Shown here: piece by piece, positions 4,942 to 60,451 of the stretch | Layout: the number at the start of each line of letters is the position of its first letter | Numbering within the stretch: position 1 is the stretch's first letter | Source of the DNA: Vicinamibacteria bacterium | GTDB lineage: Bacteria > Acidobacteriota > Vicinamibacteria > Marinacidobacterales > Marinacidobacteraceae | Assembly (NCBI GenBank): GCA_963668695.2 | Contig: CAXXLQ010000004.1 | Span: 1,280,001 to 1,344,000, forward strand | DNA length: 64,000 nt | Reading direction: 5' to 3' | Translations under genes and position numbers: made by a program | Notes under the pieces: generated by a model | The model's input: only the letters and a program-made list of their open reading frames with translations | Told to the model about the DNA's origin: nothing | Database searches by the model: none

Positions 4942-4942
<1 letters not shown>

Positions 4943-5152
4943 CAGCCGGTGGTGGAACCCGCGTGAGCGCCGAGTCCGGCCAGTTCTCCCGGTGGGGGCG
5001 AGGCCCAGTTCTCCCGGGGTCCGGCTGACAAGGGTGTATTTCGACCGAAACGCAACGATGAGCGGCGCGCAGCGACGCGGTTCAGCCGGGATGCATCGCC
5101 GGGCGAACCCCCACCGGGAGAACTGGGCCGCGTGGGTTTCGCCGCAGGCTGC
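4942..5152. mobile_element. MITE-like repeat copy with three internal 18-bp motifs
   Basis: cTA|GCAGCCGGTGG...CCGCAGGCTGC|TAg; begins in the hslU stop codon. Confidence 0.85.
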
Positions 5153-5234
5153 TAGACCACCCAGCCGACCGATTGCCGGCCCTCAACGGTTGATGCGCGA
5201 GAACGGGCGGCCCGCGCCCGGGATCGGGCACGGG

Positions 5235-7082
5235 ATGTCCCCGATGAGTTGGATCGGGCCTGTCGGGTTCGCGGGTTGGGGCCGCGCCTCGATTGGCGCG
5301 CTCGCCCTCCTTCTGGGGCTCGGTACGGCGGGATGCGGTCGCCGGGGACCTCCGCTCCCGCCGCTACGGGTGGAGCCGGAGACGCCTCGGCTCCTTCCCC
5401 TGCGGGAGGAGGGAGGACAGATCCTGATTCGTTGGTACGCGCCGCGTCTCAGCTCCGGTGGGGACGTGGAGGAGCTACGGCTGCGCAGAGCGATCGTGTC
5501 CTACCGCGTTGTACACATCCATCGTTTGGCCGCCGAGGAACGCGCCACCCAACGTGCGGGCGAGGAAGACACCGAGGAAGAAGGAAGCGGGGAGGTGCCT
5601 CCCGAGGACGAGGCGGTCCCCGAGCCGCCTGAGTCGGAAAGTACCGAGACACAAACGGGCGAGGAAGCTACGTCCGATTCCGAGGTCCCGGAGACCGTCG
5701 AGCTGGCCCCCGAGGGGGAGCCACCCGCTCCCGCCGCGGAAACTGCGCTGACCACCGAACCGGAGGGGGAGGCGGGCGAGACGTTGCCGGACGAGGCGTT
5801 GCCGGCTGCCGAAGGGCAGGAGGAGCCTGCCGCCGGTGAGCTGCCTGCCGAAGAATCGGACCCGGGACCGGGGCCGGGGGAGGCGCCGGAAGAGCCGGGG
5901 GCCACGGAACCCGAAGCGGGAGAGCCTGACAGCGAAGGCCTTGCCCAACCTCCGGAGCCGGAGGACCACCCGGAACCCGAAGAGGGAGAGCCTGACAGCG
6001 AGGACCCTGCCGAACCCCCGGAGCCGGAGGACGACCCGGAGCCCGCGGGGGTGCTTCTCGACTATGACGATCTCGAGTTCGAGGTTCTGTCCGAAGTGGA
6101 CTCGGAAGTCCTCGGGGAAGAGCGGGTCCTGGAACTTCCGGTCGATCCGGAATGGATTGGCCGGCGGTTGGAGATCAGCGTCCGGTACGAGGCCCGCGGT
6201 GGTTCCAGCGAGGAGAGCGAACCGCAATCCCTCGACGTGACCGGACCGCTTCCGCCGGTACGCGAGGTCAGCGTTGAAGTCGGTCCCCAGGCGCTGACTG
6301 TCCGCTGGTTGGATCCACGGGCCGGCTTGGAGTCGGCTTCGACCCTGACCGACCCGATTTTCGAGGTCTTCCGGCGACGGGATGGCCCGGCCGAACGCCT
6401 CGGAAGGTCTTTCGGGCCGACTCTCGCTGATTCCGACGAAGTGATCTGGGGGCAAGCGGTCTGCTACAGCGCGCGGCTCGTCATGGCGGGGGGTGATGAC
6501 GAACGGATGCTCCCCGATCCCGGTCCGGATTCGGTGTCGGGCGATCTCGAGGCGAACGTCGGCACGGAGGCGCCCGGTTTCCAGGACCCCGAAGTCGAAG
6601 GCGTTGCCCCGACCGACCCGTCTCAGGAATCCGCGAGCCCGAACGAGGATCCGGTGTCTTCGGCCCCGGACGCGCTGGAGGCGGCAGGGGCGCCCTGGAG
6701 CCCGATCCCGATCCGGGTCTCCGGGACCGGATCATCGGCGCTCAGCGTCGGGCCCCTGTCAACCGAAGCCTGCGTCACTCCGGTCGATGTCTTTCCACCG
6801 CTGCCTCCGTCGGATCTGCGCCTGTTCTGGCGAGCCGAGCAAACCGAGCTCAGTTGGAGCGAGTCGGTCTCGCAGGACGTTGTCGGATACCACGTCTACC
6901 GCTCCGGCCCGGACGGCTCCGGTTTCGAGCGTTTGACGGAATCGCCCATCGACCAGACCACGTTCGGTGACGGAGCCCGGGATCCGCGGGGGGCCTTTCG
7001 CTACGCCGTGACGGCCATCGACGGCGCCGATCCGCCCAACGAGAGCCTGCCGTCCGAGAGCCGCAGAGCCAATCCGAGATAG
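5235..7082 (+). CDS. Lipoprotein with C-terminal fibronectin type III-like domain and long acidic Glu/Pro linker
   Basis: Lipobox GTAG-C followed by GRRGPPLPP; C-terminal LSWSES...GYHVYRS...YAVTAID...NESLPS; the ORF-track extension to 4833 runs through the repeat. Confidence 0.75.
   Translation: MSPMSWIGPVGFAGWGRASIGALALLLGLGTAGCGRRGPPLPPLRVEPETPRLLPLREEGGQILIRWYAPRLSSGGDVEELRLRRAIVSYRVVHIHRLAAEERATQRAGEEDTEEEGSGEVPPEDEAVPEPPESESTETQTGEEATSDSEVPETVELAPEGEPPAPAAETALTTEPEGEAGETLPDEALPAAEGQEEPAAGELPAEESDPGPGPGEAPEEPGATEPEAGEPDSEGLAQPPEPEDHPEPEEGEPDSEDPAEPPEPEDDPEPAGVLLDYDDLEFEVLSEVDSEVLGEERVLELPVDPEWIGRRLEISVRYEARGGSSEESEPQSLDVTGPLPPVREVSVEVGPQALTVRWLDPRAGLESASTLTDPIFEVFRRRDGPAERLGRSFGPTLADSDEVIWGQAVCYSARLVMAGGDDERMLPDPGPDSVSGDLEANVGTEAPGFQDPEVEGVAPTDPSQESASPNEDPVSSAPDALEAAGAPWSPIPIRVSGTGSSALSVGPLSTEACVTPVDVFPPLPPSDLRLFWRAEQTELSWSESVSQDVVGYHVYRSGPDGSGFERLTESPIDQTTFGDGARDPRGAFRYAVTAIDGADPPNESLPSESRRANPR
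5905..6044 (+). repeat. 66-bp in-frame tandem duplication (about 2 copies) in the acidic linker
   Basis: cggaacccgaag...gagcctgacagcga... at 5905 and 5971. Confidence 0.8.
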
Positions 7083-7185
7083 AGGATCGACGGGGGTTCT
7101 GATCGGTCCGGCAGACGGTAGAATCGCATCGGGCGTAGGGTTCAGATTCCGGGCCGGATTCCGGGCCGGTGGGTGCCGGGCGCGA

Positions 7186-7836
7186 ATGCAGATATTTCTC
7201 GACACTGCCAGCCTCGACGAGATCTCGCGCGCCGCCGAGATGGGGCTCGTGGACGGCGTCACCACGAACCCTTCGCTCATGGCGAAGGAAACGGGAAACC
7301 CGCGGGAAATCCTGGCTCGGATTGCCGAGTTGGTTCCGGGCGATGTTTCGGCGGAGGTGCTCTCGACGGGCACCGCCGGCATGGTGGCCGAGGGCCGGGA
7401 ACTCGCCACCATCGCCCCGAACATCATTGTCAAGTGTCCGCTGACACCCGATGGCCTGCGCGCGGTCCGGGAGTTGAAGGAGGAAGGGATTCGCGTCAAC
7501 GTAACCCTCTGCTTCAGCGTTCCACAGGCGCTTTTTGCCGCCAAGGCTGGCGCCTACATCGTGAGTCCTTTCGTGGGTCGGCTCGACGATATTGCCTCTC
7601 CCGGAATGCAGTTGATTGCGGACATTCGGGAGGTCTACGACAACTACGGCTTTTCCACCCAGATTCTGGTGGCCAGCATCCGGAATCCCCTGCACGTCGT
7701 GGAAGCGGCGCGGCTGGGAGCCGATATCGCCACGATGCCCGCGAAGGTGCTGGATCTGCTGATCAGACATCCGCTGACGGACATCGGTCTCGAGCGCTTC
7801 CTGAAGGACTGGGCCGCCGTAACAGTCCGTGAATAG
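7186..7836 (+). CDS. tal: Transaldolase / fructose-6-phosphate aldolase family (short type)
   Basis: FLDTA, GVTTNPSL, VKCP Schiff-base Lys, NVTLCFS, SPFVGRLDD, ASIR, HPLTDIGL. Confidence 0.92.
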   Translation: MQIFLDTASLDEISRAAEMGLVDGVTTNPSLMAKETGNPREILARIAELVPGDVSAEVLSTGTAGMVAEGRELATIAPNIIVKCPLTPDGLRAVRELKEEGIRVNVTLCFSVPQALFAAKAGAYIVSPFVGRLDDIASPGMQLIADIREVYDNYGFSTQILVASIRNPLHVVEAARLGADIATMPAKVLDLLIRHPLTDIGLERFLKDWAAVTVRE

Positions 7837-8003
7837 AGTGACGCGGCGTTCGACCGGCGATGCATCCCGGCTGAACCGCGTCGCTTCGCGTCGCTCATCG
7901 TTGCGCTTCGGTCGGAATACAACCAGGTATTCCTCCCTCGCGCGCCTTGTCAGCCGGGCGCCTCGCCGGTCTCGGCGCTCACGCCACTCCATCCACGGAC
8001 TGC
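7822..8003. mobile_element. MITE-like repeat copy (CAGTCCGTG-end subfamily) overlapping the tal 3' end
   Basis: acagtccgtgaatagagtg...cactccatccacggactgc inverted ends; body matches the other copies; supplies the last codons and TAG of tal. Confidence 0.8.
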
Positions 8004-8029
8004 GGGTCACCTGACGGGGGCTGGACCCT

Positions 8030-9595
8030 GTGTCGGCGAAATCCGGGAAGCGTCGGGAAGCCTTCGCCGAACTTGAAGCGCGGAACCGCGCTGCGGAAGC
8101 GGGGGGAGGCGAGGCGAGGCTCGAACGCCAGCGACGTTCGGGAAAACTGACGGCGCGAGAGCGGATCGCGACGCTTGCCGACGCCGGGTCCTTCGAGGAG
8201 ACCGGGAAACTGGTCGAACATCGTTCGCGCGACTTTGGCCTCGACCGCCGGCGCTATCCCGGGGACGGAGTGGTGACGGGATACGCGCGGATTGACGGAC
8301 GATTGGTCTACCTGTTCGCCCAGGATTTCACGGTTCTCGGCGGCTCGCTGAGTGAGGCGTACGCCGAAAAAATCTGCCGGACCATGGACTTGGCGGTCCG
8401 GCAGGGGGCTCCGATCATCGGACTGAACGATTCGGGCGGGGCCCGCATTCAGGAAGGGGTGGTTTCGCTCGCTGGGTATGCGGATATTTTCCTGAGAAAC
8501 ACGCTGGCTTCGGGGGTGGTCCCCCAGATTTCGGCCATCCTCGGGCCGTGTGCAGGCGGTGCCGTCTATTCCCCGGCAATCACCGATTTCACGATCATGT
8601 CCCGCGGCACCAGCTTCATGTTCGTGACCGGGCCCGACGTGATCCGCGCGGTCACCCACGAGGAAGTGACCATGGAGGACCTCGGCGGCGCGGAAACCCA
8701 CAACACCGTGTCAGGGAACGCCCACTTCCTCGGCGAAAACGACGAGGACTGCCTCGGTCTGATCCGAAAACTCCTGTCGTTTCTGCCTTCGAACAACCTC
8801 GAACAACCCCCGCGGAGTCCGTCGGCAGACCCGCCCGACCGGGAAATCCCGTCGCTCGACAGTCTGGTGCCCGAGCAGTCCGATCAGCCCTACGACGTCA
8901 AGGACCTCATCGGCGAGATAGTGGACGACGGTGATTTTCTGGAAGTCCAGGCGTTGCACGCCGGGAACCTGGTGATCGGTTTCGCCCGGCTCGCCGGAGC
9001 CCCGTTGGGCATCGTCGCGAACCAGCCGGCCGTGTTGGCCGGCGTCTTGGACATTCATGCCTCGGTGAAGGGCGCGCGGTTCGTGCGGTTCTGCGACGCC
9101 TTCAACATTCCGCTCGTCGTGCTCGAGGACGTTCCGGGTTTCTTGCCGGGAACCCAGCAGGAATGGGGAGGGATCATCCGCCACGGGGCGAAGCTGCTCT
9201 ACGCGTTCGCCGAAGCCACCGTGCCCAAGGTCACGGTGATCACCCGCAAGGCGTACGGGGGCGCGTACTGCGTGATGGCCAGCAAACACATCCGCACCGA
9301 CCTCAACTACGCGTGGCCGGCCGCGGAAATCGCGGTAATGGGGCCGGAAGGCGCCGTGAACGTCCTGTATCGCCGGGAACTCGAGCAGGCCGAGGATTCT
9401 GAACAGGAGCGCGCCGATCGCGTGGCCGCCTACCGGGAGCGCTTCGCGAATCCCTACGTGGCGGCGGAGCGAGGTTACGTGGACGAGGTGATCCTTCCGC
9501 GCAGCACGCGCCGGAAGCTGGCTTCCGCACTCTCTTCCCTTTCCACCAAGCGGGACCGGAATCCTCCGAAAAAGCACGGCAACATCCCGCTCTAG
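8030..9595 (+). CDS. pccB: Acyl-CoA (propionyl-CoA) carboxylase carboxyltransferase subunit
   Basis: [56 protein letters not shown]. Confidence 0.93.
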
Positions 9596-9673
9596 CGGCC
9601 TGTGGGTACAGTGGTGTGAGCGCCAAGTCTCCCGCGGGAGGACCGGGCCGCCAGGACACTGTCCACAGACTGC
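9595..9673. mobile_element. Internally deleted MITE copy
   Basis: TA|gcggcctgtgggtacagtg...cactgtccacagactgc inverted ends with a gtgagcgcc core, starting in the pccB stop codon. Confidence 0.55.
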
Positions 9674-9769
9674 CGGGGTGATGGCCGAAAACGTGTACGG
9701 GATGCGTTCCCTGCTGCCCCGGGAGACGTTGCGGCTCGGGGGAAATCCTGGCAGGTGGCCGACCACCTG

Positions 9770-15722: not shown

Positions 15723-15842
15723 GGTCACGTGGATCAATTCGTGTGAGTGACGAGGCTCCGACCGGAAGAACTGCGGGTCGCTGGGTGAGCCCCCGCGAGA
15801 GGATCCGGGCCCCGCGATTCTGCGAACGAGCCGCCCGGCTTA

Positions 15843-16023
15843 ACAGCCTGTGGTGGAACCCGGGGGAGCGCCGAGAGCGGGGAGGCGCCCGGCTGACTAG
15901 GCGCGCGAGGGAGGAATACCGGGTGTATTTCGACCGAAGCGCAACGACGAACGACGCGAAGCGGCGCGGTTCAGCCGGGATGCATCGCCGCTTGAATGCC
16001 GTGCGACTTTGTCCACAGGTTGT
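15843..16023. mobile_element. MITE-like repeat copy at or within the Omp85 5' end
   Basis: tTA|acagcctgtgg...ccacaggttgt|TG; minimal 181-bp unit. Confidence 0.8.
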
Positions 16024-18811
16024 TGAGGATTGCTGGCGCAGCCGAGTCCACCGGCTGCTAAGCAGTCCGGGAGCGATCCTCCTCGCCGCTGGCTTGTTGG
16101 CGATCCCGAGCGGGCGCCTTGCCGCTGGCCAGGCCGGCGCCGGTCAGGCGGAAGATCCGTTGTCACAGCGCGTGGAGTCGGTGGTGGTGCGCTGGGCGGA
16201 TGGGAGCAACGAACCGGTACCCGAAGAGGTGTCCCGGCTGATCTCGGTTCGTCCCGGAACCCGCTTCCGGCCACTGGTCGCCCGGCAATCTGTGAAGCAG
16301 GTGTTTGCTCTCGGACGCTTCCGCGACGTCCGGATTCGTTCCGAGGCGGCGTCGGGCGGGGGACTTCGGCTCGTCTTTGAACTCGACCCCATTCCAAGCA
16401 TCGCCCGGTTTAGTGTTGACGGCGCCCCTCCCGGAGAGGATTTGGGGCTGATCGCCACGCTCGGCCTCGAGGTCGGCGAATCCGTTCCGGACGACCTGCC
16501 CGTTCGCGGAGAGGCAGCCGAAGGGTGGTTGCGCTCGCGGGGTTACCTGAGCGCGGAAGTGGACATCCGGAGCGTTCCGGACGGCCGCGATGTACTGCTG
16601 GAGGTGCGGGTGACCTCGGGAGCGCGCGCCCGGGTCGCCTTCATCGAGGCCGTCGGGGTGGAAGACGAGCTCGGCCGGAACCTCATCCCCGCGCTCCGGG
16701 TTTCTCCAGAGGATCCCTGGCTCGAAGCCCAAGTCGCTGCGCGCCTTCCCGAAGTCGAGGAAAGACTTCGGGATCGAGGCTTCCTATTCGCCACTGCCAG
16801 TCTCGATTGGAGGCCCATCGACACGGGAGATGTTCGGGTGGTCCTGTCGGTGGAGCCCGGCCCTGAGGTTACCCTGGAAGTGGAAGGGTTCGGTGCTTCC
16901 GGGGGGGCCGCCGAGCGCGTCGTGAATTCCCTTTCGGAGCGCACGCTCACTTTGGATGCGATCGAAGCGACCAGGCAGCAACTCCTTGCCCAGCTCCGTC
17001 GGGAAGGACACCGGGACGGTACCGTGGTGGTGGAGAGCGTCGAGAGCCCGGATGGGCGGAGGCAGACCTTCCGGTTCTCCGCCGACCCGGGCCCGCGTTA
17101 CGTTGTCGGCGCCGTCTCATCGGAAGGCGCCCCTCCGGAGGAGGCGGATGGCGTCGCCGAAGCCCTTCTGCCGCTGCGGCCCGGCCGCCCCTACCGCGAA
17201 CAAGAGTGGAGGGCCCTGACCGACAGCCTGCGCCGAACACTGCGGCGGCGGGGTTATTTCCGGGCTGAGGTGGTGCCGCTGGAGCCGGGCCCGCCCGTCC
17301 CGGTCGACGAAGGCCTCTCGCTTGATCTCACGGTGCGGGTTGAGCCGGGTCCGGCGGCCTCGGTGCGGGCGGTGCGTTTCGAAGGGGGTTCCGCCTTCAC
17401 CGATACCGACCTGTCGGAGGTGGCCGCCATCGCGCCGGGTACACCCTACGTAGCCGAAGAAATCGTGGGCGCCCGCGAAGATCTCGAGACGTTTCATCGA
17501 AACCGGGGATATCTGGAAGCCGTGGTGGAGGTCGAGGCTCCGGTCGATCCGGTCAGCCACGATGCGGAGGTTGTCTTCCGGATCCGACCCGGCAACTACT
17601 TCACGGTCGGAGGGATCATCGTCGCGGGCCTCGATACCACGAGGGATTCAGTGATCCGGTCCCGGCTTCCTTTTGAAGAGGGCGATCCGCTGGGGAGCGG
17701 CGATCTCCTCGAGGTGCGCCGGCGTCTCGTTTCCATGGGGATCTTTCGCAGCGTCGACGTGAATCTCCTCGAGCCCGAGGAACCCATCAGCGAACGCAAC
17801 GTGCTGATCCAGGTTGTGGAGGGCCCGCGCACCAGCATCGGCTACGGCGCGGGGTACAGCGAACGCGAGCAGGTCCGGGGAGAAGGCGAATGGACCCGGA
17901 ACAATCTCTTCGGGATGGGCCATACCTTGAGTCTGTTCGGCCGTTTCTCGCTCAAGGGCACGCGGATGGTGGCGACCTACCGGGGGGCGGAGAGCGTGGA
18001 GGGCGAGGTCCCCATCTTCGTGAGCGCGTTCCGTGAGTCGCAGGACCGGGAGAGCCTGGATTTCATCCGCTCTGGAATCGGCGTGCAGGTGGCCCGGAGG
18101 GTCCTCGGGCGAAATCTTTTTCTCCGCTATGACCTGACCACGAGCGAGTTGTTCGATCTGAAGATCAATCCGAATCAGATTGACCGCAACTTCGCGGACA
18201 ATCTCTGGCTCTCGGCAGTGTCGGTTTCTGCGGTCACGGACACCCGCGATGACCCGGTGAATCCTCGTCGGGGCCGTTTCGGCATCCTGGATGTGGAGTG
18301 GTCGTCCGCACTTCTCCGCTCCCGAGCGCCATTCCTGAAGGGCCTCGCACAGCAATATCTGTTTTTTCCGGTCGGGGGACAGGTAGTCGTTGCGGTTGCG
18401 GGCCGACTCGGTCTTGCGTGGACTCTGGGCGCGGACGAGCCGGCTCTCGTACCGATCACGGAGCGATTCTTCGCCGGTGGAGCGACCTCCTTGCGTGGTT
18501 ACAAACTGGACCGCGCGGGACCGCTCGACCCGAGCGGTTACCCGCTCGGTGGCAACCTGCTGATCGTCGGCAATCTGGAGGTTCGATTCCCCATCCTGAG
18601 CAGTCTGCGCGGCGCGGTTTTCTCGGATCATGGCGGGGTCTACAGCGAAGTGAACTCCTTTCGGGTGGGAGACCTCGGCCACAACGTAGGCGCTGGCCTG
18701 CGATGGAACACTCCGCTCGGGCCGCTGCGTTTCGATTACGGAATCCGGCTCGGCGACATCGGTGATGCCCCGCGCAGGCAGTGGCATTTCACGATCGGCC
18801 ACGCCTTCTAG
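15980..18811 (+). CDS. Omp85 family outer-membrane assembly factor (BamA/TamA-like) with multiple POTRA domains
   Basis: POTRA repeats (LRSRGYLSAEV, RRRGYFRAEV, NRGYLEAVV), ERFFAGGATSLRGY, TPLGPLRFDYG, terminal Phe; start uncertain (15743, 15980 or 16001). Confidence 0.88.
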   Translation: MHRRLNAVRLCPQVVEDCWRSRVHRLLSSPGAILLAAGLLAIPSGRLAAGQAGAGQAEDPLSQRVESVVVRWADGSNEPVPEEVSRLISVRPGTRFRPLVARQSVKQVFALGRFRDVRIRSEAASGGGLRLVFELDPIPSIARFSVDGAPPGEDLGLIATLGLEVGESVPDDLPVRGEAAEGWLRSRGYLSAEVDIRSVPDGRDVLLEVRVTSGARARVAFIEAVGVEDELGRNLIPALRVSPEDPWLEAQVAARLPEVEERLRDRGFLFATASLDWRPIDTGDVRVVLSVEPGPEVTLEVEGFGASGGAAERVVNSLSERTLTLDAIEATRQQLLAQLRREGHRDGTVVVESVESPDGRRQTFRFSADPGPRYVVGAVSSEGAPPEEADGVAEALLPLRPGRPYREQEWRALTDSLRRTLRRRGYFRAEVVPLEPGPPVPVDEGLSLDLTVRVEPGPAASVRAVRFEGGSAFTDTDLSEVAAIAPGTPYVAEEIVGAREDLETFHRNRGYLEAVVEVEAPVDPVSHDAEVVFRIRPGNYFTVGGIIVAGLDTTRDSVIRSRLPFEEGDPLGSGDLLEVRRRLVSMGIFRSVDVNLLEPEEPISERNVLIQVVEGPRTSIGYGAGYSEREQVRGEGEWTRNNLFGMGHTLSLFGRFSLKGTRMVATYRGAESVEGEVPIFVSAFRESQDRESLDFIRSGIGVQVARRVLGRNLFLRYDLTTSELFDLKINPNQIDRNFADNLWLSAVSVSAVTDTRDDPVNPRRGRFGILDVEWSSALLRSRAPFLKGLAQQYLFFPVGGQVVVAVAGRLGLAWTLGADEPALVPITERFFAGGATSLRGYKLDRAGPLDPSGYPLGGNLLIVGNLEVRFPILSSLRGAVFSDHGGVYSEVNSFRVGDLGHNVGAGLRWNTPLGPLRFDYGIRLGDIGDAPRRQWHFTIGHAF

Positions 18812-18899
18812 CGGGCGACTCTTTCTCCGTAGGCGCGACGCCCGCCTCCGCGGTGCTGTCGAGGAGACCCTTGCGCTCCGGGACCAGCGGTCCGGATTA

Positions 18900-19319
18900 A
18901 CAGCCGGTGGTGGAACCCACGCGGCGTTCGGCCGGCGATCCATCCCGGCCAAACAGCCGGTGGTGGAACCCGCGCGGCGTTCGGCCAGCGATCCATCCCG
19001 GCTGAACCGCGTCGCTGCGCGCCGCTCATCGTTGCGTTTCGGTCGAAATACACTCGGTATTCCTCCCTCACGCGCCTTGTCAGCCGGACCCCCACCGGGA
19101 GAACTGGGCCTCGCCGGCCTCGGCGCTCACTCGGATTCCACCACCGGCTATTTCACCGCGTCGCTGCGCGCCGCTCATCGTTGCGTTTCGGTCGAAATAC
19201 ACCCGGGCCAGTTCTCCCGGTGGGGGCTCCTCCCTCACGCGCCTTGTCAGCCGGGCGCCTCGCCCCCACCGGGAGAACTGGCCAGCCTCGGCGCTCACCC
19301 GGGTTCCACCACAGGCTGT
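18900..19319. mobile_element. Composite MITE (2 left + 2 right half-modules)
   Basis: acagccggtggtggaacc twice (18900, about 18953), then two right halves ending ccaccggct / ccacaggctgt. Confidence 0.85.
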
Positions 19320-19397
19320 AAGACGCACGCTTTCGGCGGGGCTGTGCCAGACTGTCCAGGTGTGTCGGTTCGGACGCGGCCCGGAGGCCCGCAAAGC

Positions 19398-20303: not shown

Positions 20304-21338
20304 ATGGACCCTACGACTACAGATTACGAAACCATCGAGTTCGTCGACGAGGCTTTCGATCTCGAGGAAGAAGAGGAAGAGTCCACTGAGGATGAGTTGG
20401 ATGAGGCTCGAGAACTCGGTCTCGCTCCGGATACCCACCAGACCGGCGATCTGGACTCGATGGGGCTCTATCTGCGGGACACGCACCGGCACCGGCTGCT
20501 CACCAAGAATGACGAGCAGCGCTACAGCCGCGCCATGCAGCAAGCCCTTCGCGACATTGAGGGCACCGAGGATCCGGCGAATACGGACGTCAATGCCTTC
20601 TACAAGAACCGGGAAAAGATGATCGAGGGGAACCTGCGCCTCGTCATCTCCATTGCCAAGCAGTCCCGAGGCAAGGGGCTCCCGCTGGGCGATCTCATCC
20701 AGGAAGGCAACATCGGACTCATGCAGGCGGTTCGCAAGTTCGAGCCGGAGCGCAATCTGAAGTTCTCGACCTATGCGACGTGGTGGATTCGGCAGGCGAT
20801 CTGGCGTGCACTTTCCCAAAAGTCCCGCACGATCAAGGTTCCTATCAACAAGCTGGATCTTCACCGCAAGGCTTCCAAGGTTCGGGCGGAACTCGAGCAG
20901 CGGTACCGGAACGATCCTGCGCGACGCGGGAAGCGGCAGTTCCCGACGACCGACGACGTCGCTCGCGAGATAGGAGTGCCCGCGGAGAGGCTTAAGGATG
21001 CGCTCCGTTCGGTGCCGCAGATTGACTCCCTCGATGCGCCGCTGGTTCCTGATGGGACGCCGCGGATCGCGCTGACTCCCGATCCGGATCAGTTGAATCC
21101 GATCGAAGGTGTCACCGATGCCGAACAGCGCCGCCACGTCCGGGATGCCATTTCGGACCTCCCCGATCGGTTGCAGCACGTGCTCAAGCGCCGCTTCGGG
21201 ATTCTGGGTGGCGGTGAGGCGAACCTCGAGGAGATCGGGCGTGAGCTTCACCTGACCCGGGAACGGGTGCGGCAGCTCGAGACCGAAGCGCTTCTCCGGC
21301 TCCGCCAGGATCCGCGCCTCCGCGTTTCCGCGGGCTAA
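20304..21338 (+). CDS. Sigma-70 family RNA polymerase sigma factor (RpoD/RpoS-like, lacks region 1.1)
   Basis: [53 protein letters not shown]; GGAGG RBS. Confidence 0.92.
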
Positions 21339-21537
21339 CAGCCTGTGGTGGAATCCGGGTGAGCGCCGAGGCCGGCCAGTTCTCCCGGTGGGGGCGAGGC
21401 GCCCGGCTGACAAGGCGCGTGAGGGAGGAATACCGAGTGTATTTCGACCGAAACGCAACGCAGAACGGAGCGCAGCGGAGTGGCTCAGCCGGGATGGATC
21501 GCCGGCCGAACGCCGCGTAGGTTTCATCACAGGCTGT
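21338..21537. mobile_element. MITE-like repeat copy in the sigma factor stop codon
   Basis: gggcTA|acagcctgtgg...tcacaggctgt|TAgccc; the empty site would be gggcTAgccc. Confidence 0.85.
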
Positions 21538-21556
21538 TAGCCCTCCCGCTCGCCAT

Positions 21557-23499: not shown

Positions 23500-23510
23500 T
23501 CCGTAGGCCG

Positions 23511-24989: not shown

Positions 24990-25547
24990 GTGCCCTGGAT
25001 CCGCATGATTTCCCCCGACGCCCCCGAGGGCCGTACGGGGCGGCTCGGAACTCTCTACCGGCGACACCGGCGTCCTGATGGCCTCGTTGACAACATCCTT
25101 GGGGTATCCAGCTTGAACCCCGAGGCGCTGGAGCACCATCTGTCCCTGTACGAGCACCTGATGCGTGGCGAATCGGGGCTCGAGCTGGCGGAGCGGGAAC
25201 TGATTGCGGTCGCCGTTTCCGTGGTCAACGAGTGCCACTATTGAATCGAGCATCACCGGAGGGGTCTTCTCCGGCTGACGAGAGATCCGGAACTGGTGGA
25301 CGCCTTGCGCCGCGATCCCGCAGGATGTTCCCTTCCGCCGCGCCGCCGTGCTCTCGTTGACTACGCGATCAAGCTGGCGCGGACTCCGGCGAGTCTTGCC
25401 GAGGAAGACCTCGCGCCGCTCCGGAACGCCGGGCTTTCCGACCGCGACATCCACGACGCGTGTGCGGTGGCCTCCTACTACTGCTTCGTGAACCGCATGG
25501 CCACCGGCCTCGGTGTGGAGTTGGAAGAGGCGGGATCCGGGCCTTAG
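24990..25547 (+). CDS. AhpD-like / peroxidase-related selenoprotein (in-frame UGA at 25242-25244 read as Sec)
   Basis: The two ORF-track pieces share one frame: ERELIAVAVSVVNEC-H-Y-TGA-IEHH... matches the NxCxYCxxxH motif; C-terminus YYCFVNRMATGLGV; SECIS-like hairpin follows. Confidence 0.85.
25253..25278 (+). promoter_or_regulatory. Putative bacterial SECIS element
   Basis: tca-ccggagg-GGTCT-tctccgg-c-tga stem-loop; apical loop about 18 nt after the UGA. Confidence 0.7.
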
Positions 25548-25764
25548 CAGCCTGTGGTGGAACCCGGGTGAGCGCCGAGAGCGGGGAGGCGCCCGGCTGA
25601 CAAGGCGCGTGAGGGAGGAGCCCCCACCGGGAGAACTGGCCCGAGTGTATTTCGACCGAAACGCAACGCAGAGCGCCGCAAAGCGCCAGTTCTCCCGGTG
25701 GGGGGGCGGTTCAGGCGGGATGCATCGCCGCTCGAACGCCGCCTGGGTATTCACCACAGGCTGT
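25547..25764. mobile_element. MITE-like repeat copy in the selenoprotein stop codon
   Basis: tTA|gcagcctgtgg...ccacaggctgt|TAg. Confidence 0.85.
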
Positions 25765-25816
25765 TAGCTTCCGGGCCGGTTGGCAGGCTGTTAGCTTCCG
25801 GGCCGGTTGGCAGGCT
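25757..25816. repeat. 27-bp tandem duplication spanning the MITE right end and its flank
   Basis: caggctgttagcttccgggccggttgg twice, then caggct. Confidence 0.85.
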
Positions 25817-35439: not shown

Positions 35440-35452
35440 GGTGCCCAGGCTG

Positions 35453-41530: not shown

Positions 41531-42324
41531 GCCTCGCCGCGCTCCGTACTACGCTGGGGGAGGGGCCGGCGGTTTCTCCGTTTCTGGTGCTCGGAGATCC
41601 GACTCCTGACCTTTGTGTGGAGTTGGCGCGGACGGCGGTCTCGGCGGGCGCCCGGATGCTTGAGATCGGATTCCCCTATAGCGATCCGGTCGCCGATGGT
41701 CCGGCGATCCAGGCGGCGGCGAGCCGCGCGCTTGCGGGAGGCACCTCAACGTTCCGCGGGTTCGAACTTCTGGGGCGGATCGCAAAGACCTGTCCGGGAG
41801 TCCCGCTCAACCTGCTGGTGTACGGGAATCTGGTGCATCGGATCGGATACGAACGGTTCACCGACACCGTGCGCGATGCCGGCGCCTCCTCGCTGCTCGT
41901 TCCGGATATACCGCTGGAGGAGGCCGCTCCGCTCCGCCGGGCGTGCCGGCGCGCCGGGCTCGGGCACGTTGAACTGGCGGGGCCCCTCACCCCGGCGCCG
42001 CGTCTCAAGCGCCTCGCCGGCGCCTCCTGTTTCGTTTACCTCGCGGGCTTCCAGGGCGTCACCGGCGTTCGTCGCGGCGGGTTCTCCGGGGTCCTTCGCC
42101 GGGTCGCCGAAGTCGCCGGAGTTGTGCAGGTTCCCTTGTGTCTCGGTTTCGGGCTGTCGGACCGCGCTCAGATCGTTCGCGGCTTCGAAGCCGGCGCGCG
42201 GATCGCGGTCGTCGGGAGCCACCTCGCGCGGGCAGTCGAACGCCTTTACCGAAGGGCGGGGGACGCGGATGACCTGATCGCCGGTTACCGTTCCGCGGTG
42301 CTTCAGCTCACCGCAAGCGGTTAA
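41527..42324 (+). CDS. trpA: Tryptophan synthase alpha chain
   Basis: [33 protein letters not shown]. Confidence 0.95.
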
Positions 42325-43015
42325 CAGCCTGTGGCAAAACCCACACGGCGTTCGACCGGCGATCCATCCCGGCCAAACAGCCTGTGATGAAACCCGCGCG
42401 GCCCAGTTCTCCCGGTGGGGGCTCGGCCGGCGATCCATCCCGGCCAAACAACCGGTGATGAAACCCACGCGGCCCAGTTCTCCCGGTGGGGGCTCGGCCG
42501 GCGATCCATCCCGGCTGAACCGCGTCGCTTTCGCGCCGCTCATCGTTGCGCTTCGGTCGGAATACACTCGGTATTCTTCCCTCACGCGCCTTGTCAGCCG
42601 GGCCCCCACCGGGAGGACTGGCCCCACCGGGAGAACTGGGCCTCACCGGCCTCGGCGCTCACATGGGTTCCACCACCGGCTGTTCACCGCGTCGCTGCGC
42701 GCCGCTCATCGTTGCGTTTCGGTCGAAATACACCCGGGCCAGTTCTCCCGGTGGGGGCTCCTCCCTCACGCGCCTTGTCAGCCGGGCCCCCACCGGGAGG
42801 ACTGGCCCCACCGGGAGAACTGGGCCTCGCCGGCCTCGGCGCTCACGCGGGTTCCACCACCGGCTGTTCACCGCGTCGCTGCGCGCCGCTCATCGTTGCG
42901 TTTCGGTCGAAATACACCCGGGCCAGTTCTCCCGGTGGGGGCTCCTCCCTCACGCGCCTTGTCAGCCGCGCGCCTCGCCGGTCTCGGCGCTCACGTGGGT
43001 TTCACCACAGGCTGT
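42324..43015. mobile_element. Composite MITE (3 left + 3 right half-modules) in the trpA stop codon
   Basis: tTA|acagcc...ggctgt|TAa; left modules at about 42324, 42377, 42448; right modules end at about 42683, 42868, 43015. Confidence 0.88.
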
Positions 43016-43036
43016 TAACGGCGAAAGGAAAGAACC

Positions 43037-44069: not shown

Positions 44070-44468
44070 GCAGCCGGTGGTGAAATCCACGCGGCCCAGT
44101 TCTCCCGGTGGGGGCTCGGCCGGCGATCCATCCCGGCCAAACAGCCTGTGATGAAACCCGCGCGGCGTTCGGCCGGCGATCCATCCCGGCTGACCGCGTC
44201 GCTGCGCGCCGCTCATCGTTGCGTTTCGGTCGGAATACACCCGGTATTCCTCCCTCACGCGCCTTGTCAGCCAAGCGCCTCACCGGCCTCGGCGCTCACG
44301 CGGGTTCCACCACAGGCTGTTCACCACTCCGCTTCGCTCCGTTCTGCGTTGCGTTTCGGTCGCAATACACTCGGGCCAGTTCTCCCGGTGGGGGCTCCTC
44401 CCTCACGCACCTTGTCAGCCGGGCGCCTCACCGGCCTCGGCGCTCACGCGGGTTCCACTACAGGCTGC
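44070..44468. mobile_element. Composite MITE (2 left + 2 right half-modules)
   Basis: gcagccggtgg...ctacaggctgc|TAa; ends just before the next ATG (44474). Confidence 0.85.
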
Positions 44469-44473
44469 TAACG

Positions 44474-45452: not shown

Positions 45453-46016
45453 ATGCCTGAGCCTCCGGCGAGTCCAGCAATCCAGTCGGCCCGTGCGCCG
45501 GCCTCCAAACGAGCCTCCGCCGCCGCCAAAAAGGTCACCCGCCGGGAATTCCCTTTTCTGGCCATCGGCTGGGCTGTTTTCACGGCTGCCATGGCCGCCG
45601 GGCTCACCGCCGTGGGCCGGTTCATGTTCCCGAACGTCCTGACGGAGCCGCCTTCGGAGTTCAAGGCCGGCTTTCCGGCTGACTTCTCGATCGGGGTGGT
45701 GGATACCCGTTTCAAGGAGCGCTACCAGGTGTGGATCGTCCGGGACGAGGAAAAGATCTACGCCCTCTCCACCATCTGCACCCACCTGGGATGTACGCCG
45801 AACTGGCTCGAGGCCGAGAGCAAGTTCAAGTGTCCCTGTCACGGGAGCGGGTTCTACGTGACGGGGATCAACTTCGAGGGCCCGGCGCCCCGCCCGCTGG
45901 AACGCGTCGGCGTGAGCCTCGCGGAGGACGGCCAGCTGCTCATCGACAAGTCGCGCCTTTTCAAGTTCGAAGCGGGCCAGTGGACCGATTCCGCCTCGTT
46001 CCTTTCCCTGACGTAA
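45453..46016 (+). CDS. Rieske 2Fe-2S subunit of a Rieske/cytochrome b complex
   Basis: Tat signal TRREF, CTHLGC, CPCHGS, GPAPRPL. Confidence 0.95.
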   Translation: MPEPPASPAIQSARAPASKRASAAAKKVTRREFPFLAIGWAVFTAAMAAGLTAVGRFMFPNVLTEPPSEFKAGFPADFSIGVVDTRFKERYQVWIVRDEEKIYALSTICTHLGCTPNWLEAESKFKCPCHGSGFYVTGINFEGPAPRPLERVGVSLAEDGQLLIDKSRLFKFEAGQWTDSASFLSLT

Positions 46017-46188
46017 GCAGCCCGTGAACCAAGTAGCCCGGCATTCGAGCGGCGATCCATCCCGGCTGAACCGCTTCGCTCTGTGTTCCGCTTCGGTCGG
46101 AATACACTCGGTATTCCTCCCGAATCGCGCCTTGTCAGCCGGGCGCCTCACCGCTCTCGGTGCTCGGGCCTCCTGGTCCACGGACTGC
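46017..46188. mobile_element. MITE-like repeat copy (CAG[C/T]CCGTG-end subfamily)
   Basis: gcagcccgtgaacca...tggtccacggactgc|TA, directly after the Rieske TAA. Confidence 0.8.
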
Positions 46189-48410: not shown

Positions 48411-48422
48411 GCAACTTTTCCC

Positions 48423-54634: not shown

Positions 54635-54689
54635 TGTTTGCGCCACTGATTTCGACGCTGACAGGGAGCCGACCCGGAGAGGAGGAGGC

Positions 54690-55295: not shown

Positions 55296-55316
55296 GAAAC
55301 TCTGGGAGGCCCGCTC

Positions 55317-55622: not shown

Positions 55623-55626
55623 CCCC

Positions 55627-55935
55627 ATGTCCCGCTCCAGCCTGCTCACGCTGATTGCTGCCGCCATCGCGTTCATCACGCTCGTGCCAGCGGATGCGCT
55701 GGCGCAGTGCTCGATGTGCCGGACGGCGCTCGAGCAGAACCCGGAGGCCGCCGCGGGCTTCAACCGGGCGATCCTGTTCCTCTTGGCGATGCCCTACACG
55801 GTGTTCGGCTCCCTGGCCGGCTACGTGCTGGTTTCGCGCCGGAGACGCGTGCGCAAGGCGGCCGCAGCGATGGCCCCGGTGACCTACGCCGCCACCCCGG
55901 TTCGCGGCGAGGACGTCGTTAGCAGCCGGTGGTGA
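55627..55935 (+). CDS. Small AQCSMC membrane protein of the oxidase cluster; C-terminus altered by MITE
   Basis: Signal, AQCSMC, GFNRAILFLLAMPY TM. Confidence 0.75.
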   Translation: MSRSSLLTLIAAAIAFITLVPADALAQCSMCRTALEQNPEAAAGFNRAILFLLAMPYTVFGSLAGYVLVSRRRRVRKAAAAMAPVTYAATPVRGEDVVSSRW

Positions 55936-56139
55936 AACCCGGGTGAGCGCCGAGGTTGGCCAGTTCTCCCGGTGGGGGCGAGGCGCCCGGCTGACAAGGC
56001 GCGTGAGGGAGGAGCCCCCACCGGGAGAACTGGCCCGGGTGTATTTCGACCGAAACGCAACGATGAGCGGCGCGCAGCGACGCGGTTCAGCCGGGATGGA
56101 TCGCCGGCCGAACGCCGCGTGGGTTCCACCACCGGCTGC
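55922..56139. mobile_element. MITE-like repeat copy inside the 3' end of the small gene
   Basis: gtTA|gcagccggtgg...ccaccggctgc|TAac; empty site cgtTAacg. Confidence 0.87.
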
Positions 56140-56165
56140 TAACGCCGCCTCCTGACCGCGCGAAG

Positions 56166-57110: not shown

Positions 57111-57225
57111 GGCAAACCTCCCGTGGGGTCCGTCTATTCTGGCGCGTGAGACGGACAAAGGGGCGCTCCACGAGGCAGAAGTGCCTCCGAGCCGCGTCTT
57201 CGATCCGAATCGGGATGCGGCGTTA

Positions 57226-57460
57226 ACAGCCTGTGGTGAAACCCAAGCGGCGTTCGAGCGGCGATCCATCCCGTCTGAACCACGCCGCTTTGCGGCGCTC
57301 TGCGTTGCGTTTCGGTCGAAATACACCCGGGCCAGTTCTCCCGGTGGGGGCTCCTCCCTCACGCGCCTTGTCAGCCGGGCCCCCACCGGGAGGACTGGCC
57401 CCACCGGGAGAACTGGGCCTCGCCGCTCTCGGCGCTCACCCGGGTTCCACCACAGGCTGT
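57226..57460. mobile_element. MITE-like repeat copy
   Basis: tTA|acagcctgtgg...ccacaggctgt|TA; shares its TA with the next copy. Confidence 0.85.
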
Positions 57461-57462
57461 TA

Positions 57463-58005
57463 ACAGCCTGTGGCAAAACCCACGCGGCATTCCCGAGCCA
57501 GAAGGGATGGGGGCCGGGTAGCCCCGCCCCCCGTCCCTCCCGCTCCGGGGTCTCCGCGGTGCTCGCGCCCCGCTCCGGAAGCGACCGGCGATGCATCCCG
57601 GCCAAACAGCCTGTGATGAAACCCACGCGGCGTTCGGCCGGCGATCCATCCCGGCCAAACAGCCTGTGATGAAACCCACGCGGCGTTCGGCCGGCGATCC
57701 ATCCCGGCTGAACCGCGTCGCTGCGCGCCGCTCATCGTTGCGTTTCGGTGGGAATACACCCGGGCCAGTTCTCCCGGTGGGGGCTCCTCCCTCGCGCGCC
57801 TTGTCAGCCGGGCGCCTCGCCCGTCTCGGTGCTCACGTGGGTTCCACCACCGGCTGTTCACCGCCCCGCTTCGCGGTGCTCTGCGTTGCGCTTCGGTCGA
57901 AATACACCCGGGCCAGTTCTCCCGGTGGGGGCTCCTCCCTCGCGCGCCTTGTCAGCCGGGCGCCTCGCCCGTCTCGGTGCTCACGTGGGTTTCCCCGCAG
58001 GCTGT
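57463..58005. mobile_element. Composite MITE (3 left + 2 right half-modules) with about 90-bp cargo
   Basis: Left modules at about 57463, 57607, 57660 (the last two identical); right modules end at about 57858 and 58005; foreign insert about 57493-57582. Confidence 0.83.
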
Positions 58006-58158
58006 AACGGGCTGCTACAATTCATCGCTCAATTCAGGGGCGACTTCGCCCCTCTGAGTCGGTTTCTCGACTGTCAGGTGCGGCCCGAGTCTGTCAGGCC
58101 CACCGGTTGCGGACCGTATTTCATCCCCCCTGCCCATGGAACGGAGGTTCCCCGTAAG

Positions 58159-58947
58159 ATGCTTCATAGAGCCCCTCGCACGCTCGTTCTGCTCGCGATT
58201 CCCCTCGCCCTCGCCCTCGCCCTGCTGGTCGGCTGCGGCGGTGGTGGCGGTGAATCTGACACCGCGATGGAGGCCATCCCGGTCGCCACCGTGGATCCGG
58301 CGACCGCCGGCATCATCAGCGGCAAGGTCATGCTCGACGGTGACGCCCCGCCGGCGGACACCATCCAGATGGCTGCCGACCCGAACTGCGCCCGCATGCA
58401 CGACGGCCCGGTGATGACCGAGTTCGTGATCACCGACATGGAGGGCGGACTGCAGAACGCCTTCGTGTACATCAAGGGCGGTATCGAGGGCATGAGTTTC
58501 CCGACGCCGACCGAGTCGGTCACCCTGAACCAGGAGGGGTGCCTCTATGTGCCCCACGTGCTCGGGCTCCAGGTGGGCCAGCCGCTGAACATCCTGAACA
58601 GCGACTCAACGCTCCACAACATCCACGCCAGTCCCTCCGCGAACCGGGAGTTCAACATCGGCCAGCCGGTGGCAAACATGAGCACCACCCGGACCTTCGA
58701 CAGCGTGGAGGTCATGGTTCCCTTCAGGTGCGACGTGCACCGCTGGATGAACAGCTACGCGGGCGTCCTCGACCACCCCTACTTCGCGGTCAGCAGCATG
58801 GACGGCTCCTTCACCATCGGCAACGTGCCGCCGGGCCCCTACACCGTCGGCGTCTGGCACGAGCGTCTCGGTGAGATGGAGATGATGGTCACCGTCGGCG
58901 AATCGGCCACCGCGGAAGCCAGCTTCACCTACAGCGCCGCCGAATAG
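58159..58947 (+). CDS. Lipoprotein with cupredoxin-like core and carboxypeptidase-regulatory-like domain
   Basis: Lipobox LVG-C, QEGCLYVPH, NSDSTLHNIH, CDVHRWM, HPYFAVS...GSFTI, VWHE. Confidence 0.8.
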   Translation: MLHRAPRTLVLLAIPLALALALLVGCGGGGGESDTAMEAIPVATVDPATAGIISGKVMLDGDAPPADTIQMAADPNCARMHDGPVMTEFVITDMEGGLQNAFVYIKGGIEGMSFPTPTESVTLNQEGCLYVPHVLGLQVGQPLNILNSDSTLHNIHASPSANREFNIGQPVANMSTTRTFDSVEVMVPFRCDVHRWMNSYAGVLDHPYFAVSSMDGSFTIGNVPPGPYTVGVWHERLGEMEMMVTVGESATAEASFTYSAAE

Positions 58948-59022
58948 GACCAACTCCCTGGCGGGCCCGACCCGTCCGGGCCAGGACGCGGGAATCGCCG
59001 CCTTCGGGGCGGCGATTCACCG

Positions 59023-60451
59023 CTAATGTGGCCGGGACCCCTCCGGGTGTGGCCGGGACCCCTCCGGGGCGTTCGCGGGCCAGAGCCTCTTGCGCAGGTC
59101 CTTTGCCCAGCCTTCGACCACTTTGTCCCCGCCGATTTGCCGTACCCGGTTGTAGTCGAAAAGCGCCCTCTGCCGCTGACCCATGCCGTCGCGGGCATTG
59201 CCGCGGCGGAAGTGCAGCATCACGCAGATGTCGGAAGGCGGAGAGGACTCGAGACCCCGTGAGAAGGCCGCCTCCGCTTCTTCCCACTTTTCTTCGAACA
59301 GCCAGGACTCGCCCAGCCTGAGTTCCGGGAGGCCGCCCGGGGTCAGATGGTAGTTCCCGAAACCGGCATCCCGCTGCTCGATGAAGGCAAGTACCTCGTC
59401 GCGTGCCTCGGCGGTCTCTCCGTGGTGCAGGTGGACCCCTAACAGCCTGTGGTGAAACCCACGTGAGCGCCGAGACCGGTGAGGCGCCCGGCTGACAAGG
59501 CGCGTGAGGGAGGAATACCCGGTGTATTTCGACCGAAACGCAACGCAGAACGGAGCGAAGCGGAGTGGTTCAGCCGGGATGCATCGCCGGTCGAACGCCG
59601 CGTGGGTTTTGCCACAGGCTGCTAACTCTTCAAGGGCGTAGTCGGGATTCTTCGGGAACTGCTCCCGGAGCGTTCGGATGGCAACGAGGGCTTCTTCGAG
59701 CCGGTCCTCCCGCTGCATGAAGAGCACCTGGGCCCAGAGTGCGCCCCAGCGCGAGCGCTCTCCTTCTTGTGCGGTCCGGGCGAGCCAATCCAGCCCCCGC
59801 TCCTTGTCGCCCCGAACGCCGGAGAGGAACGCGAGCATGCGGAGAGCGCGCGGCAGGGTTGCGATCCCGTAGTCGTAGACGCCCGGGACCTGGTAGGCGT
59901 CGGTGAAGTCGGGATCCCTCTTCCAGGATGCTGCGGTGGTGCCCAACCGCTCTGCTCATCGCGCGAGTTCCGGAGAAATAGGAGCGGGCCACCGTGACAT
60001 CCCAGGCGGATTTCAAGCCTTCGGTGGCGCCCAGGTAATAGCGGTTCGGCAGATCCGCAGGATGGTGCTCGCTTACCCGCTCGCAGCGCGTGCGTGCTTC
60101 CGCAAGTTGGCTCTCGAAGAGTCCTGTTTCTTCATCGCTTACTTCCGGGGTTCCGGTTTGTTCCCAATACCGGTCGCCCCGGTGGGAGGATCCCCGCATT
60201 CCCCCGCTGCGCTGGGCCGCCTTCTTCCAGATGATGCTGGCGCGGCCGTAGGGCCCGGCGGCGTAGTCGGGAAACTGATCTCCGAGGCGCCGAAACACCT
60301 GATCGGCTTCTTCGAATTCGTAGTTGAACAGATGCTGATACCCCTCTCTTTCGAGGGGTAGCGCTTCGTCTCCGATGTCCGTTGGCTGTCCCTGGACGAG
60401 GCCGGGCGCGAGCAGAATCACCCCGGCGAGGACCGCAAGTCGAGAGGTCAT
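59023..60451 (-). pseudogene. Secreted TPR-like protein gene with a one-base frameshift (59916-59918) and an in-frame MITE insertion
   Basis: N-part MTSRLAV...HHRSILEE joins DPDFTDAY... after removing one G; the 183-bp insertion reads as 61 aa; 21-bp tandem repeat (PEGSRPH x2) at the C-terminus. Confidence 0.75.
59442..59622. mobile_element. Minimal MITE copy inserted in-frame in coding sequence
   Basis: ccTA|acagcctgtgg...ccacaggctgc|TAac; 181 + 2 = 183 bp. Confidence 0.9.

Follow-up and report, generated by a model that had tools for sequence, protein, structure and literature searches.

Repeat copies in the window and their architecture

[quoted passage not shown] As argued below, these are probably non-autonomous elements that are moved in trans by the DDE transposase of an insertion sequence (IS) of the IS1182/IS5 superfamily, with duplication of a 4-bp YTAR target (Y, pyrimidine; R, purine). 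A preliminary description of the window, made from the sequence alone, had listed 14 copies. All of these coordinates fall inside family copies, and two of them (57226 and 57463) belong to one island, which leaves 13 islands. The description had put their extent at about 3.9 kb or 6% of the window; the density stands, and the figure itself becomes 4,182 bp or 6.5% on recount. Its 181-bp unit at 59442-59622 with CAGCC[T/G]GTG...CAC[A/C]GGCTG ends is as claimed, and the second end type that it reported is present at 7823 as the CAGTCCGTG variant.

Single copies in unit orientation (+) lie at 4940..5152, with one 19-nt module and CTAG on either side, the left TAG being the hslU stop codon; at 15840..16047 (copy 15843), between a tamB-like and an Omp85 gene; at 21329..21541, where the left TAA is the stop of a sigma-70 gene; and at 55912..56141 (copy 55922), which an upstream open reading frame (ORF) of 102 aa (55627-55935) enters by 13 nt. 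The 25547 copy (25543..25790) and the minimal 181-bp unit (59439..59627; copy 59442) are likewise on the + strand. Two single copies are in reverse orientation (-), one of the CAGTCC end type at 7821..8003, into which a transaldolase ORF (7186-7836) extends by 14 nt, and the 46017 copy (46015..46188) between the Rieske and cytochrome b genes. A degenerate copy without assigned strand, of which the left end alone is recognisable, occupies 9595..9760 between carboxyltransferase and biotin carboxylase genes; its left CTAG contains the carboxyltransferase stop, and relatives without the copy use TGA at that codon. The remaining islands are composites and arrays, all on the - strand. The 18900 composite (18888..19345, about 420 bp) holds a duplicated left-arm module and two core/right-arm modules; it is missing from the related genome G001 and reduced to a remnant in G004, which at the 15843 site also has a right-end remnant alone. 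An array of about 700 bp (42309..43023; copy 42324), in which 71-nt left-arm repeats are followed by three 184-bp units, sits between trpA and the DAHP synthase gene, its left TAA being the trpA stop, and is missing from G004, G009 and G010. A further composite (44070..44472), between the DAHP synthase and HEAT-repeat genes, is missing from G004, G008, G009 and G010, and an island of two abutting elements with one common TTAA and internal module repeats (57224..58005) is missing from G004 and G008.

Units range from 181 to 236 bp (181, ~199, ~217, ~236) by symmetrical insertion of a 19-nt module in the arms, and composites reach about 1 kb by addition of repeated left-arm modules (53 or 71 nt) and core/right-arm modules (184 nt). 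Terminal inverted repeats of the form CAGCC[T/G/C]GTGG...CCAC[A/C/G]GGCTG stand on both ends of 179 full-length copies, and the arms pair over about 60 bp. The unit strand carries GAGGGAGGAA at 59500-59520 and at the equivalent positions of other copies, followed 7 nt later by a GTG whose frame is open to the element end; a conserved peptide is nevertheless unlikely because the 19-nt modules shift the frame. In agreement with the preliminary description, no transposase domain was found among the 51 called window genes scanned, and a search of the window with 4,227 Rfam families at gathering score gave no match.

Across the assembly, a blastn search with the 181-bp unit returned 955 high-scoring segment pairs, far above chance, of which 198 were near full length, and the end motifs number about 1,223. 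These raw counts are inflated by haplotig duplicates, in keeping with a contamination estimate of 9%: contigs C1, C3 and the final 130 kb of C4 (3.78-3.91 Mb) duplicate other parts of C4 as haplotigs, at 97.6-99.7% identity. Because of this partial redundancy we restricted the island count to C4:1-3,780,000, where 528 islands cover 155,302 bp or 4.1% of the sequence. The CAGCC[T/G/C]GTGG ends are common to at least two further repeat families with other interiors. Orientation is uniform in 106 multi-core islands and mixed in one, and 11 of 12 pairs of abutting complete units share their orientation, with a single 4-nt spacer between the units (TTAA in nine, TTAG in two, CTAA in one). The haplotigs differ by whole modules, in one case by a 210-bp unit flanked by the 19-nt module. 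Since independent insertions would mix orientations, recombination or slippage is the most likely way in which arrays grow; their expansion and contraction would come from recombination among internal modules instead of successive insertions.

Empty sites, target duplication and stop codons

The window has colinear counterparts, at 75-97% identity, in five genomes of the same genus, and presence or absence of a copy is polymorphic among them at most sites. The mobility expected by the preliminary description is evident from clean empty TTAG, CTAA and TAA sites that face filled sites with a duplication. An empty TTAG in the closest relative, G001, corresponds to TTAG..TTAG around the 25547 copy, and an empty CTAA in G001 and G008 to CTAA..CTAA around the 59442 copy. 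The 46017 copy, missing in G004, G008 and G010, faces an empty ACG-TAA-GGC, of which the TAA is duplicated at the filled site, and at the 42324 copy an empty GTAA in G004 faces TTAA..TTAA. Relatives in turn hold copies at sites that are empty in the window.

The preliminary description had taken the duplication to be TA rather than 4 bp. The empty TTAG (25547) and CTAA (59442) match the 4-mers of the filled sites, and on the evidence of the sequences the duplication is 4 bp, N-TA-N and mostly YTAR, rather than TA. Sibling copies point the same way, as, of 28 sibling pairs that are ≥97.5% identical, 16 differ at the base adjoining CAGCC/GGCTG, and so do all five that are ≥99.5% identical. In near-identical pairs it follows the flank (CTAG/CTAG vs TTAA/TTAC; GTAC/GTAC vs TTAA/TTAA; CTAG/CTAG vs GTAA/TTAA), and copies that are 100% identical over CAGCC..GGCTG carry different adjoining bases, each matching its own flank. 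A purine at the start of each end is thus not a property of the element, as had been proposed: the adjoining base derives from the target and varies between identical copies. For the flanks as a whole we used the 96 islands with TA on both sides. Fully matching 4-mers were observed in 39 of them, compared with 19.9 ± 3.3 after shuffling ends against flanks, and no-match 4-mers in 10, compared with 28.2 ± 3.9; neither value was reached in any of 10,000 shuffles. A duplicated pair lacking TA, CTGG/CTGG, is also present.

These data bear on the alternative that the family consists of IS630/Tc1-type MITEs, in which the element would be RCAGCC...GGCTGY, the duplication TA only and the mover an IS630 transposase, as for pneumococcal RUP. 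TA is indeed central in nearly all intact flanks, and the bases beside it are complementary in 85 of the 96 islands, as though they were part of the inverted repeat. However, copies with 100% identity differ at the supposed terminal base, the flank classes CTAA/TTAG and TTAG/CTAA, which independence of ends and targets would produce, are nearly missing (0 and 1 of 96), and the empty TTAG and CTAA sites fit full 4-bp duplications. Together with the transposase comparisons presented below, this makes an IS630-type origin very improbable.

A plain 4-bp duplication does not account for all flanks, and three observations count against it: the 4-mers on both sides are identical in only 39 of the 96 islands; the inner flank bases are complementary in 85, which it does not predict; and the 46017 copy is compatible with a 3-bp duplication. 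The inner pair is complementary in all of the commonest mixed classes (CTAA/TTAA, 12 islands; TTAG/CTAG, 11; CTAG/CTAA, 10), and one locus is flanked by GTAA/TTAA in G008 and by TTAA/TTAA in G001 and G004. Pure 2-bp and pure 4-bp flank models were both rejected, as each fails on the full 96-island set. Our best guess is that the complementary inner bases arise by templated correction within the hairpin after insertion. A 3-bp duplication with an additional templated base, carry-over of donor overhangs, which is known from piggyBac, and the likewise known correction of quasi-palindromes were considered as alternatives.

Some sites carry traces of other events. Positions 35440-35460 of the window read ...CCCAG|GCTGCTA... 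alone where G008 has a 200-bp copy, which looks like the remnant of an imprecise deletion; the G004 remnants at the 15843 and 18900 sites resemble it. Positions 31964-31968 hold GTCA at empty-site length where G001, G004 and G008 carry a copy, and G000 is closest to G001; this would be either a precise loss followed by substitution or the result of independent gains at a hot site in three relatives. The sites at 48401-48410 and 23510-23518 are empty in the window and filled in G001, G004, G008 and G009. The same CTAG sites are also used by other families, namely a 200-250-bp element beginning with TCGTGCCAGAAGCG and a 567-bp element in G001, and a 1.4-kb insertion with IS630-like ORFs in G008 has GCCAGAAG at its end as well.

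The relation of the copies to stop codons was assessed with 2,930 genes called by our own codon-usage caller with repeats masked, and the gene identities used here were confirmed by Pfam. The observation that copies begin in or after stops held for hslU (TAG 4940-4942), the carboxyltransferase gene (TAG 9593-9595), the sigma-70 gene (TAA 21336-21338), an 83-aa ORF (TAG 25545-25547), trpA (TAA 42322-42324) and the Rieske gene (TAA 46014-46016). Genome-wide, 111 genes end exactly at an element edge (offset 0), and one to seven at each other offset from -40 to -1; among genes that read into an element, 12 end at offset +10, the maximum inside the element, and five at 13 nt. Stop enrichment beyond TA availability, another point of the preliminary description, was also recovered, with 105 of 314 islands whose TA is intact at a defined end (33%) overlapping a called stop at an expected stop share of non-coding sites of 10.4% for TA and 20.1% for YTAR. 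Relative to YTAR availability, stops are hit about 1.7 times as often as expected (p = 3e-8), and about 2.5 times as often by islands with both ends intact (49 of 96). Two features of this comparison count against it, in that the gene calls come from our own caller and the intergenic null includes other, unmasked repeats; moreover, an excess of this size can result from selection against insertions in 5' regions.

The proposed reason for the enrichment, a concentration of TA in stop codons, was overstated, as only 930 of 41,701 TA dinucleotides outside elements (2%) lie in called stops. That a stop survives the insertion was correct, with the same stop present in empty-site relatives at the trpA, Rieske, 25547 and 59442 sites; that purine-first ends rebuild it was not. 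The stop is kept because it lies inside the duplicated tetranucleotide, and any element that duplicates YTAR would keep it. Under the IS1182/IS5-type reading, the transposase would cut Py-TA-Pu with a 4-nt stagger, so that all four nucleotides are duplicated. A TAA or TAG stop that follows C or T is a YTAR site, and insertions into coding sequence would be purged by selection; copies would thus accumulate in or just after stops, which the duplication would preserve. Stop usage among the called genes is 1,824 TGA, 813 TAG and 293 TAA, and about a tenth of the TAA/TAG stops adjoin the CAGCC-ended family.

A candidate partner transposase in related genomes

The preliminary description had favoured IS630/Tc1-type mobilisation and suggested a search for a transposase-bearing element with the same ends. 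Such elements were found in the relatives G001, G010 and G008, and they are IS1182/IS5-like with a DDE transposase; the IS630 ends that could be located in G000 and its relatives are unrelated. A search of the relatives with IS5-family models retrieved IS1182-like multi-copy genes, three types of which have MITE ends. These elements of 1,488-1,516 bp begin and end with CAGCCTGTGG. The G010 element (1,515 bp) has the ends CAGCCTGTGGTGAAAC... and is flanked by TTAA on both sides; the G001 element (1,516 bp, 14 copies) has the ends CAGCCTGTGGTG(G/A)AA... and, at its first locus, ATAG on both sides; and the G008 element (1,488 bp) has the ends CAGCCTGTGGAAAAAG... between TTAA and TTAA. Over the first 16 nt they agree exactly with the MITE end, and this stretch forms the 16-nt terminal inverted repeat CAGCCTGTGGTGAAAC. 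Among the 18 IS copies counted of 19 parsed loci (L150, whose ends were mis-parsed, was excluded), 16 have perfect 4-bp duplications (TTAA 11, TTAG 2, ATAG 1, CTAA 1, TTAC 1) and two are mixed (TTAA/CTAA and CTAA/TTAA). IS5 is described in passages of PMC5493358 as duplicating Py-T-A-Pu, CTAG most often.

The IS protein, 487 aa in G001 and 478 aa in G010, contains DUF772 and DDE_Tnp_1, both above the Pfam cut-offs. Its best NCBIfam model is IS1182 (NF033551). The transposase of this CAGCC-ended IS is a candidate partner that, judged by the shared ends, would move the MITEs in trans. Close homologues (E ≤ 1e-30, fragments included) number 17 in G001, four in G010, two in G008, one in G004 and seven in G018, with a few in other genomes.

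Several findings speak against this assignment. NF033551 yields 146-149 bits against a cut-off of 270, so that the transposase is a divergent relative and not a curated member of the IS1182 family. The likeness between MITE and IS ends after 16 nt, and the MITE is therefore not a simple deletion derivative of the IS. G000, with about 530 islands of which some are 100% identical, is without a close transposase homologue (best E = 1e-5), and its only IS1182-like element has different ends. The closed congeneric genomes G009 and G014 carry the MITE and gave no match to the IS1182 and IS5 models. The IS4, IS1634 and IS1182-like elements of G000 were rejected as partners, their ends not being CAGCCTGTGG, and a loose scan of G000 for end pairs 0.5-4 kb apart returned 387 mostly spurious pairs and no autonomous element. 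PF13586 and PF13359 gave no match.

IS630 was likewise rejected as a partner. An intact IS630 is present in one copy in G000 and in 12 identical copies in G001, at CTAG beside MITE ends, as that reading would have it. However, the terminal repeats found at 10 of 14 IS630 loci (TGTGGTGTCCCGCAAAT, TGGACTGTAACA, TAGAGCGATTCC) do not match the MITE, nor do the ends of the second G000 element (TGTCGTGTCA), with at most a 7-mer in common, and the L107-type IS630 occurs in three of 15 genus genomes, most MITE-bearing ones being without it.

The IS1182/IS5-like element of the relatives has a further peculiarity. Its transposase frame (L152:1189-2652, - strand; G001 copies) extends to the last base of the element and contains no stop codon. 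Where the flanks are TTAA or CTAG, the duplicated TAR terminates it and the frames have 487 aa; in the G001 copy flanked by ATAG it stays open for 1,406 aa. The intact IS630 of G000 (L107; C4:667053-668190) encodes a 361-aa transposase and has the ends TGTGGTGTCCCGCAAAT. It lies at CTAG sites with a MITE on either side, and its stop is a TAG formed with the flanking CTAG; the 12 identical G001 copies often adjoin MITE ends.

Orientation, hairpin asymmetry and relation to known repeats

Between co-directional genes, 214 islands are antisense, with the complement of the 59442 unit strand in the direction of transcription, and 92 sense, with the unit strand itself (70:30; p = 2e-12). The ratio is alike on leading-strand (134:61) and lagging-strand genes (80:31), and orientation relative to replication is unbiased (242:218). 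The bias is strongest where the residual spacer is ≤40 bp (62:15) and weakest above 300 bp (38:22); the Mann-Whitney test on residual spacer length gives p = 0.007. Such a bias with transcription points to fitness effects, and the statement that the family spreads harmlessly is not supported. The two strands also differ in folding. The unit strand reaches -111.2 kcal/mol (z = -9.6) and its complement -94.5 kcal/mol (z = -7.8), and in 173 of 174 copies it is the unit strand that folds better. The stem of 31 elements from relatives contains 176 G-U and eight A-C cells, with compensatory changes at eight pairs, and each of three subfamilies has four to six consensus G-U pairs and no A-C pair; as these counts share ancestry, the independent evidence amounts to a handful of positions. 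The stronger-folding unit strand, on which a GGGAGGA motif precedes GTG, is in most cases not the one present in mRNA. Transcription-coupled deamination was rejected as a source of the G-U excess, since it predicts the opposite asymmetry given 70% antisense copies.

The hairpin could instead be the substrate of the mover. The family would then be a REP/REPIN-like element that a Y1 transposase (RAYT/IS200-type) moves as single-stranded DNA, or another hairpin-reading mechanism would move it, with the G-T-tolerant, strand-asymmetric hairpin as substrate. The whole element is a hairpin, on one strand almost every mismatch in it is G-U/G-T (176 vs 8) with the same pattern in each of the three subfamilies, arrays are uniformly oriented, and the cognate DDE transposase is absent from G000. 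Yet G000, which is 92% complete, has no match to Y1_Tnp (PF01797), target duplications are present, a DDE-encoding IS with identical ends exists, and the replication bias predicted by insertion into lagging-strand single-stranded DNA is missing. We consider this reading extremely unlikely.

That copies lie inside operons, as the preliminary description had it, was confirmed. In two metatranscriptome libraries, contigs tile this stretch, reaching 57 nt from the Rieske gene into the 46017 copy, spanning the copy, and leading from its interior into cytochrome b, which is compatible with co-transcription of the copy with both genes. The depth of intergenic RNA contigs is uneven (0-19), and that of DNA runs flat at about 190-400 outside repeats. 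It weighs against this evidence that it consists of contigs, not reads, and that DNA carry-over is possible. Parts of the trp region had no RNA-contig coverage, from which nothing is concluded. In window positions 1-20000, a consensus promoter scan gave no hit inside the copies; the 18900 composite contains one weak terminator-like site. Within the trans-mobilisation reading, an inserted element would be transcribed with its operon and could form a long hairpin. Its fold is much stronger on one strand, and 70% of copies would have been left by selection with the weaker-folding strand in mRNA. We infer that the stronger hairpin is kept out of mRNA by selection against polar effects.

Alternatively, though compatibly with this explanation, the copies may be largely domesticated RNA modules whose hairpin serves the host, for example in intercistronic processing, stability or attenuation, with transposition accounting for no more than their origin. 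The orientation bias tracks transcription and is strongest in tight operons, compensatory changes occur at eight base pairs and both strands fold far better than shuffles, RNA-library contigs cross the copy in the Rieske/cytochrome b operon, and sections of PMC3049150 describe orientation-dependent mRNA effects of ERIC, Correia and BIME. However, orthologous sites are often empty in close relatives, and the favoured orientation places the weaker hairpin in mRNA, which resembles avoidance of harm over functional gain. Transposase binding, too, would be expected to leave compensatory changes in inverted repeats, and neither an Rfam match nor a consensus promoter was found in the scanned copies, the weak terminator-like site being the single signal. 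Domestication on a large scale is thus unlikely.

It is tempting to join the stop codon and hairpin observations into one account, which as a whole is rather doubtful. An IS without its own transposase stop would rely on the TAR of its duplicated YTAR target, self-extension of the hairpin into the duplication by templated correction would make the inner flanks complementary in 89% of MITEs and not necessarily in the 1.5-kb IS, and the strand-asymmetric hairpin would affect operon RNA enough for selection to sort orientations. Our searches of the MITE literature gave no description of these three ties. If the account is true, the 500-odd copies of this sponge-associated symbiont would amount to a layer of RNA structure between cistrons throughout its genome.

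Among known systems, the family is like the IS5 and IS1182 insertion sequences and their MITE derivatives in its 4-bp Py-T-A-Pu duplication with CTAG and TTAA commonest (for IS5, according to parts of PMC5493358). Its putative partner IS has DUF772 and DDE_Tnp_1 and shares an identical 16-nt terminal repeat with the MITE. It is unlike them in the score of that transposase (149 bits vs the curated IS1182 cut-off of 270), in the confinement of likeness to 16 nt and in the closure of the transposase frame by the target TAR. The CAGCC... ends presumably also differ from those of IS5. RUP of S. pneumoniae (linked to IS630-Spn1), Correia and ERIC are similar as short intergenic hairpins that have inverted ends, insert at TA-containing targets and occur in many copies, and for ERIC and Correia operon co-transcription and orientation-dependent RNA effects are reported in portions of PMC2229807 and PMC3049150. 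However, they duplicate TA only and have IS630-type ends, whereas the present family duplicates 4 bp and the resident IS630 ends are unrelated. The BOX repeats of S. pneumoniae are also modular and size-variable, and encode the stop codon of 36 annotated genes (relevant section of PMC3049150), comparable with the 111 called genes that end at the edge here. In BOX the stop lies within the repeat itself, in the present family in the duplicated target, and the two also differ in modules, in host phylum and in presumed transposase. REP/BIME and REPIN with RAYT share hairpin repeats behind genes, module arrays and a strand-asymmetric hairpin with our family, and differ in that here no Y1/RAYT gene was found, target duplications are present and array units are direct, not alternating. 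The 70:30 orientation bias with transcription and the strand-asymmetric hairpin are new findings of this analysis. Our literature search found no published account of a CAGCC-ended MITE family and nothing under the genus name 'Marinacidobacterium', and a 2024 review of prokaryotic MITEs contains none of the terms searched.

For a repeat that fills about 4% of these genomes, these results correct the mechanism from IS630-type TA to an IS5/IS1182-type 4-bp YTAR duplication and name a candidate, testable transposase. They account for the many genes that end at a repeat edge, and can aid annotation of metagenome-assembled genomes (MAGs), since ORFs can cross or enter copies. The orientation bias and asymmetric fold offer a natural test of how long intra-operon hairpins affect mRNA, and polymorphic insertions may serve as strain markers for an uncultured lineage of sponge metagenomes.

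The 181-bp unit had no match in plasmid and phage collections. An exact 24-mer of the repeat occurs at 84 or more places in public genomes, and the 80 listed among these all lie in MAGs that bear the label Acidobacteria, Acidobacteriota, Vicinamibacteria or 'Candidatus Marinacidobacterium'. The family was matched in all 15 genus genomes and in 21 of 24 family genomes, and weakly in 10 of 16 genomes of the same order outside the family. A first look gave 69-583 candidates per closed or near-closed assembly and 45-135 per fragmented one, rough figures and not copy numbers; the repeat accounts for the assembly behaviour of closed versus fragmented MAGs.

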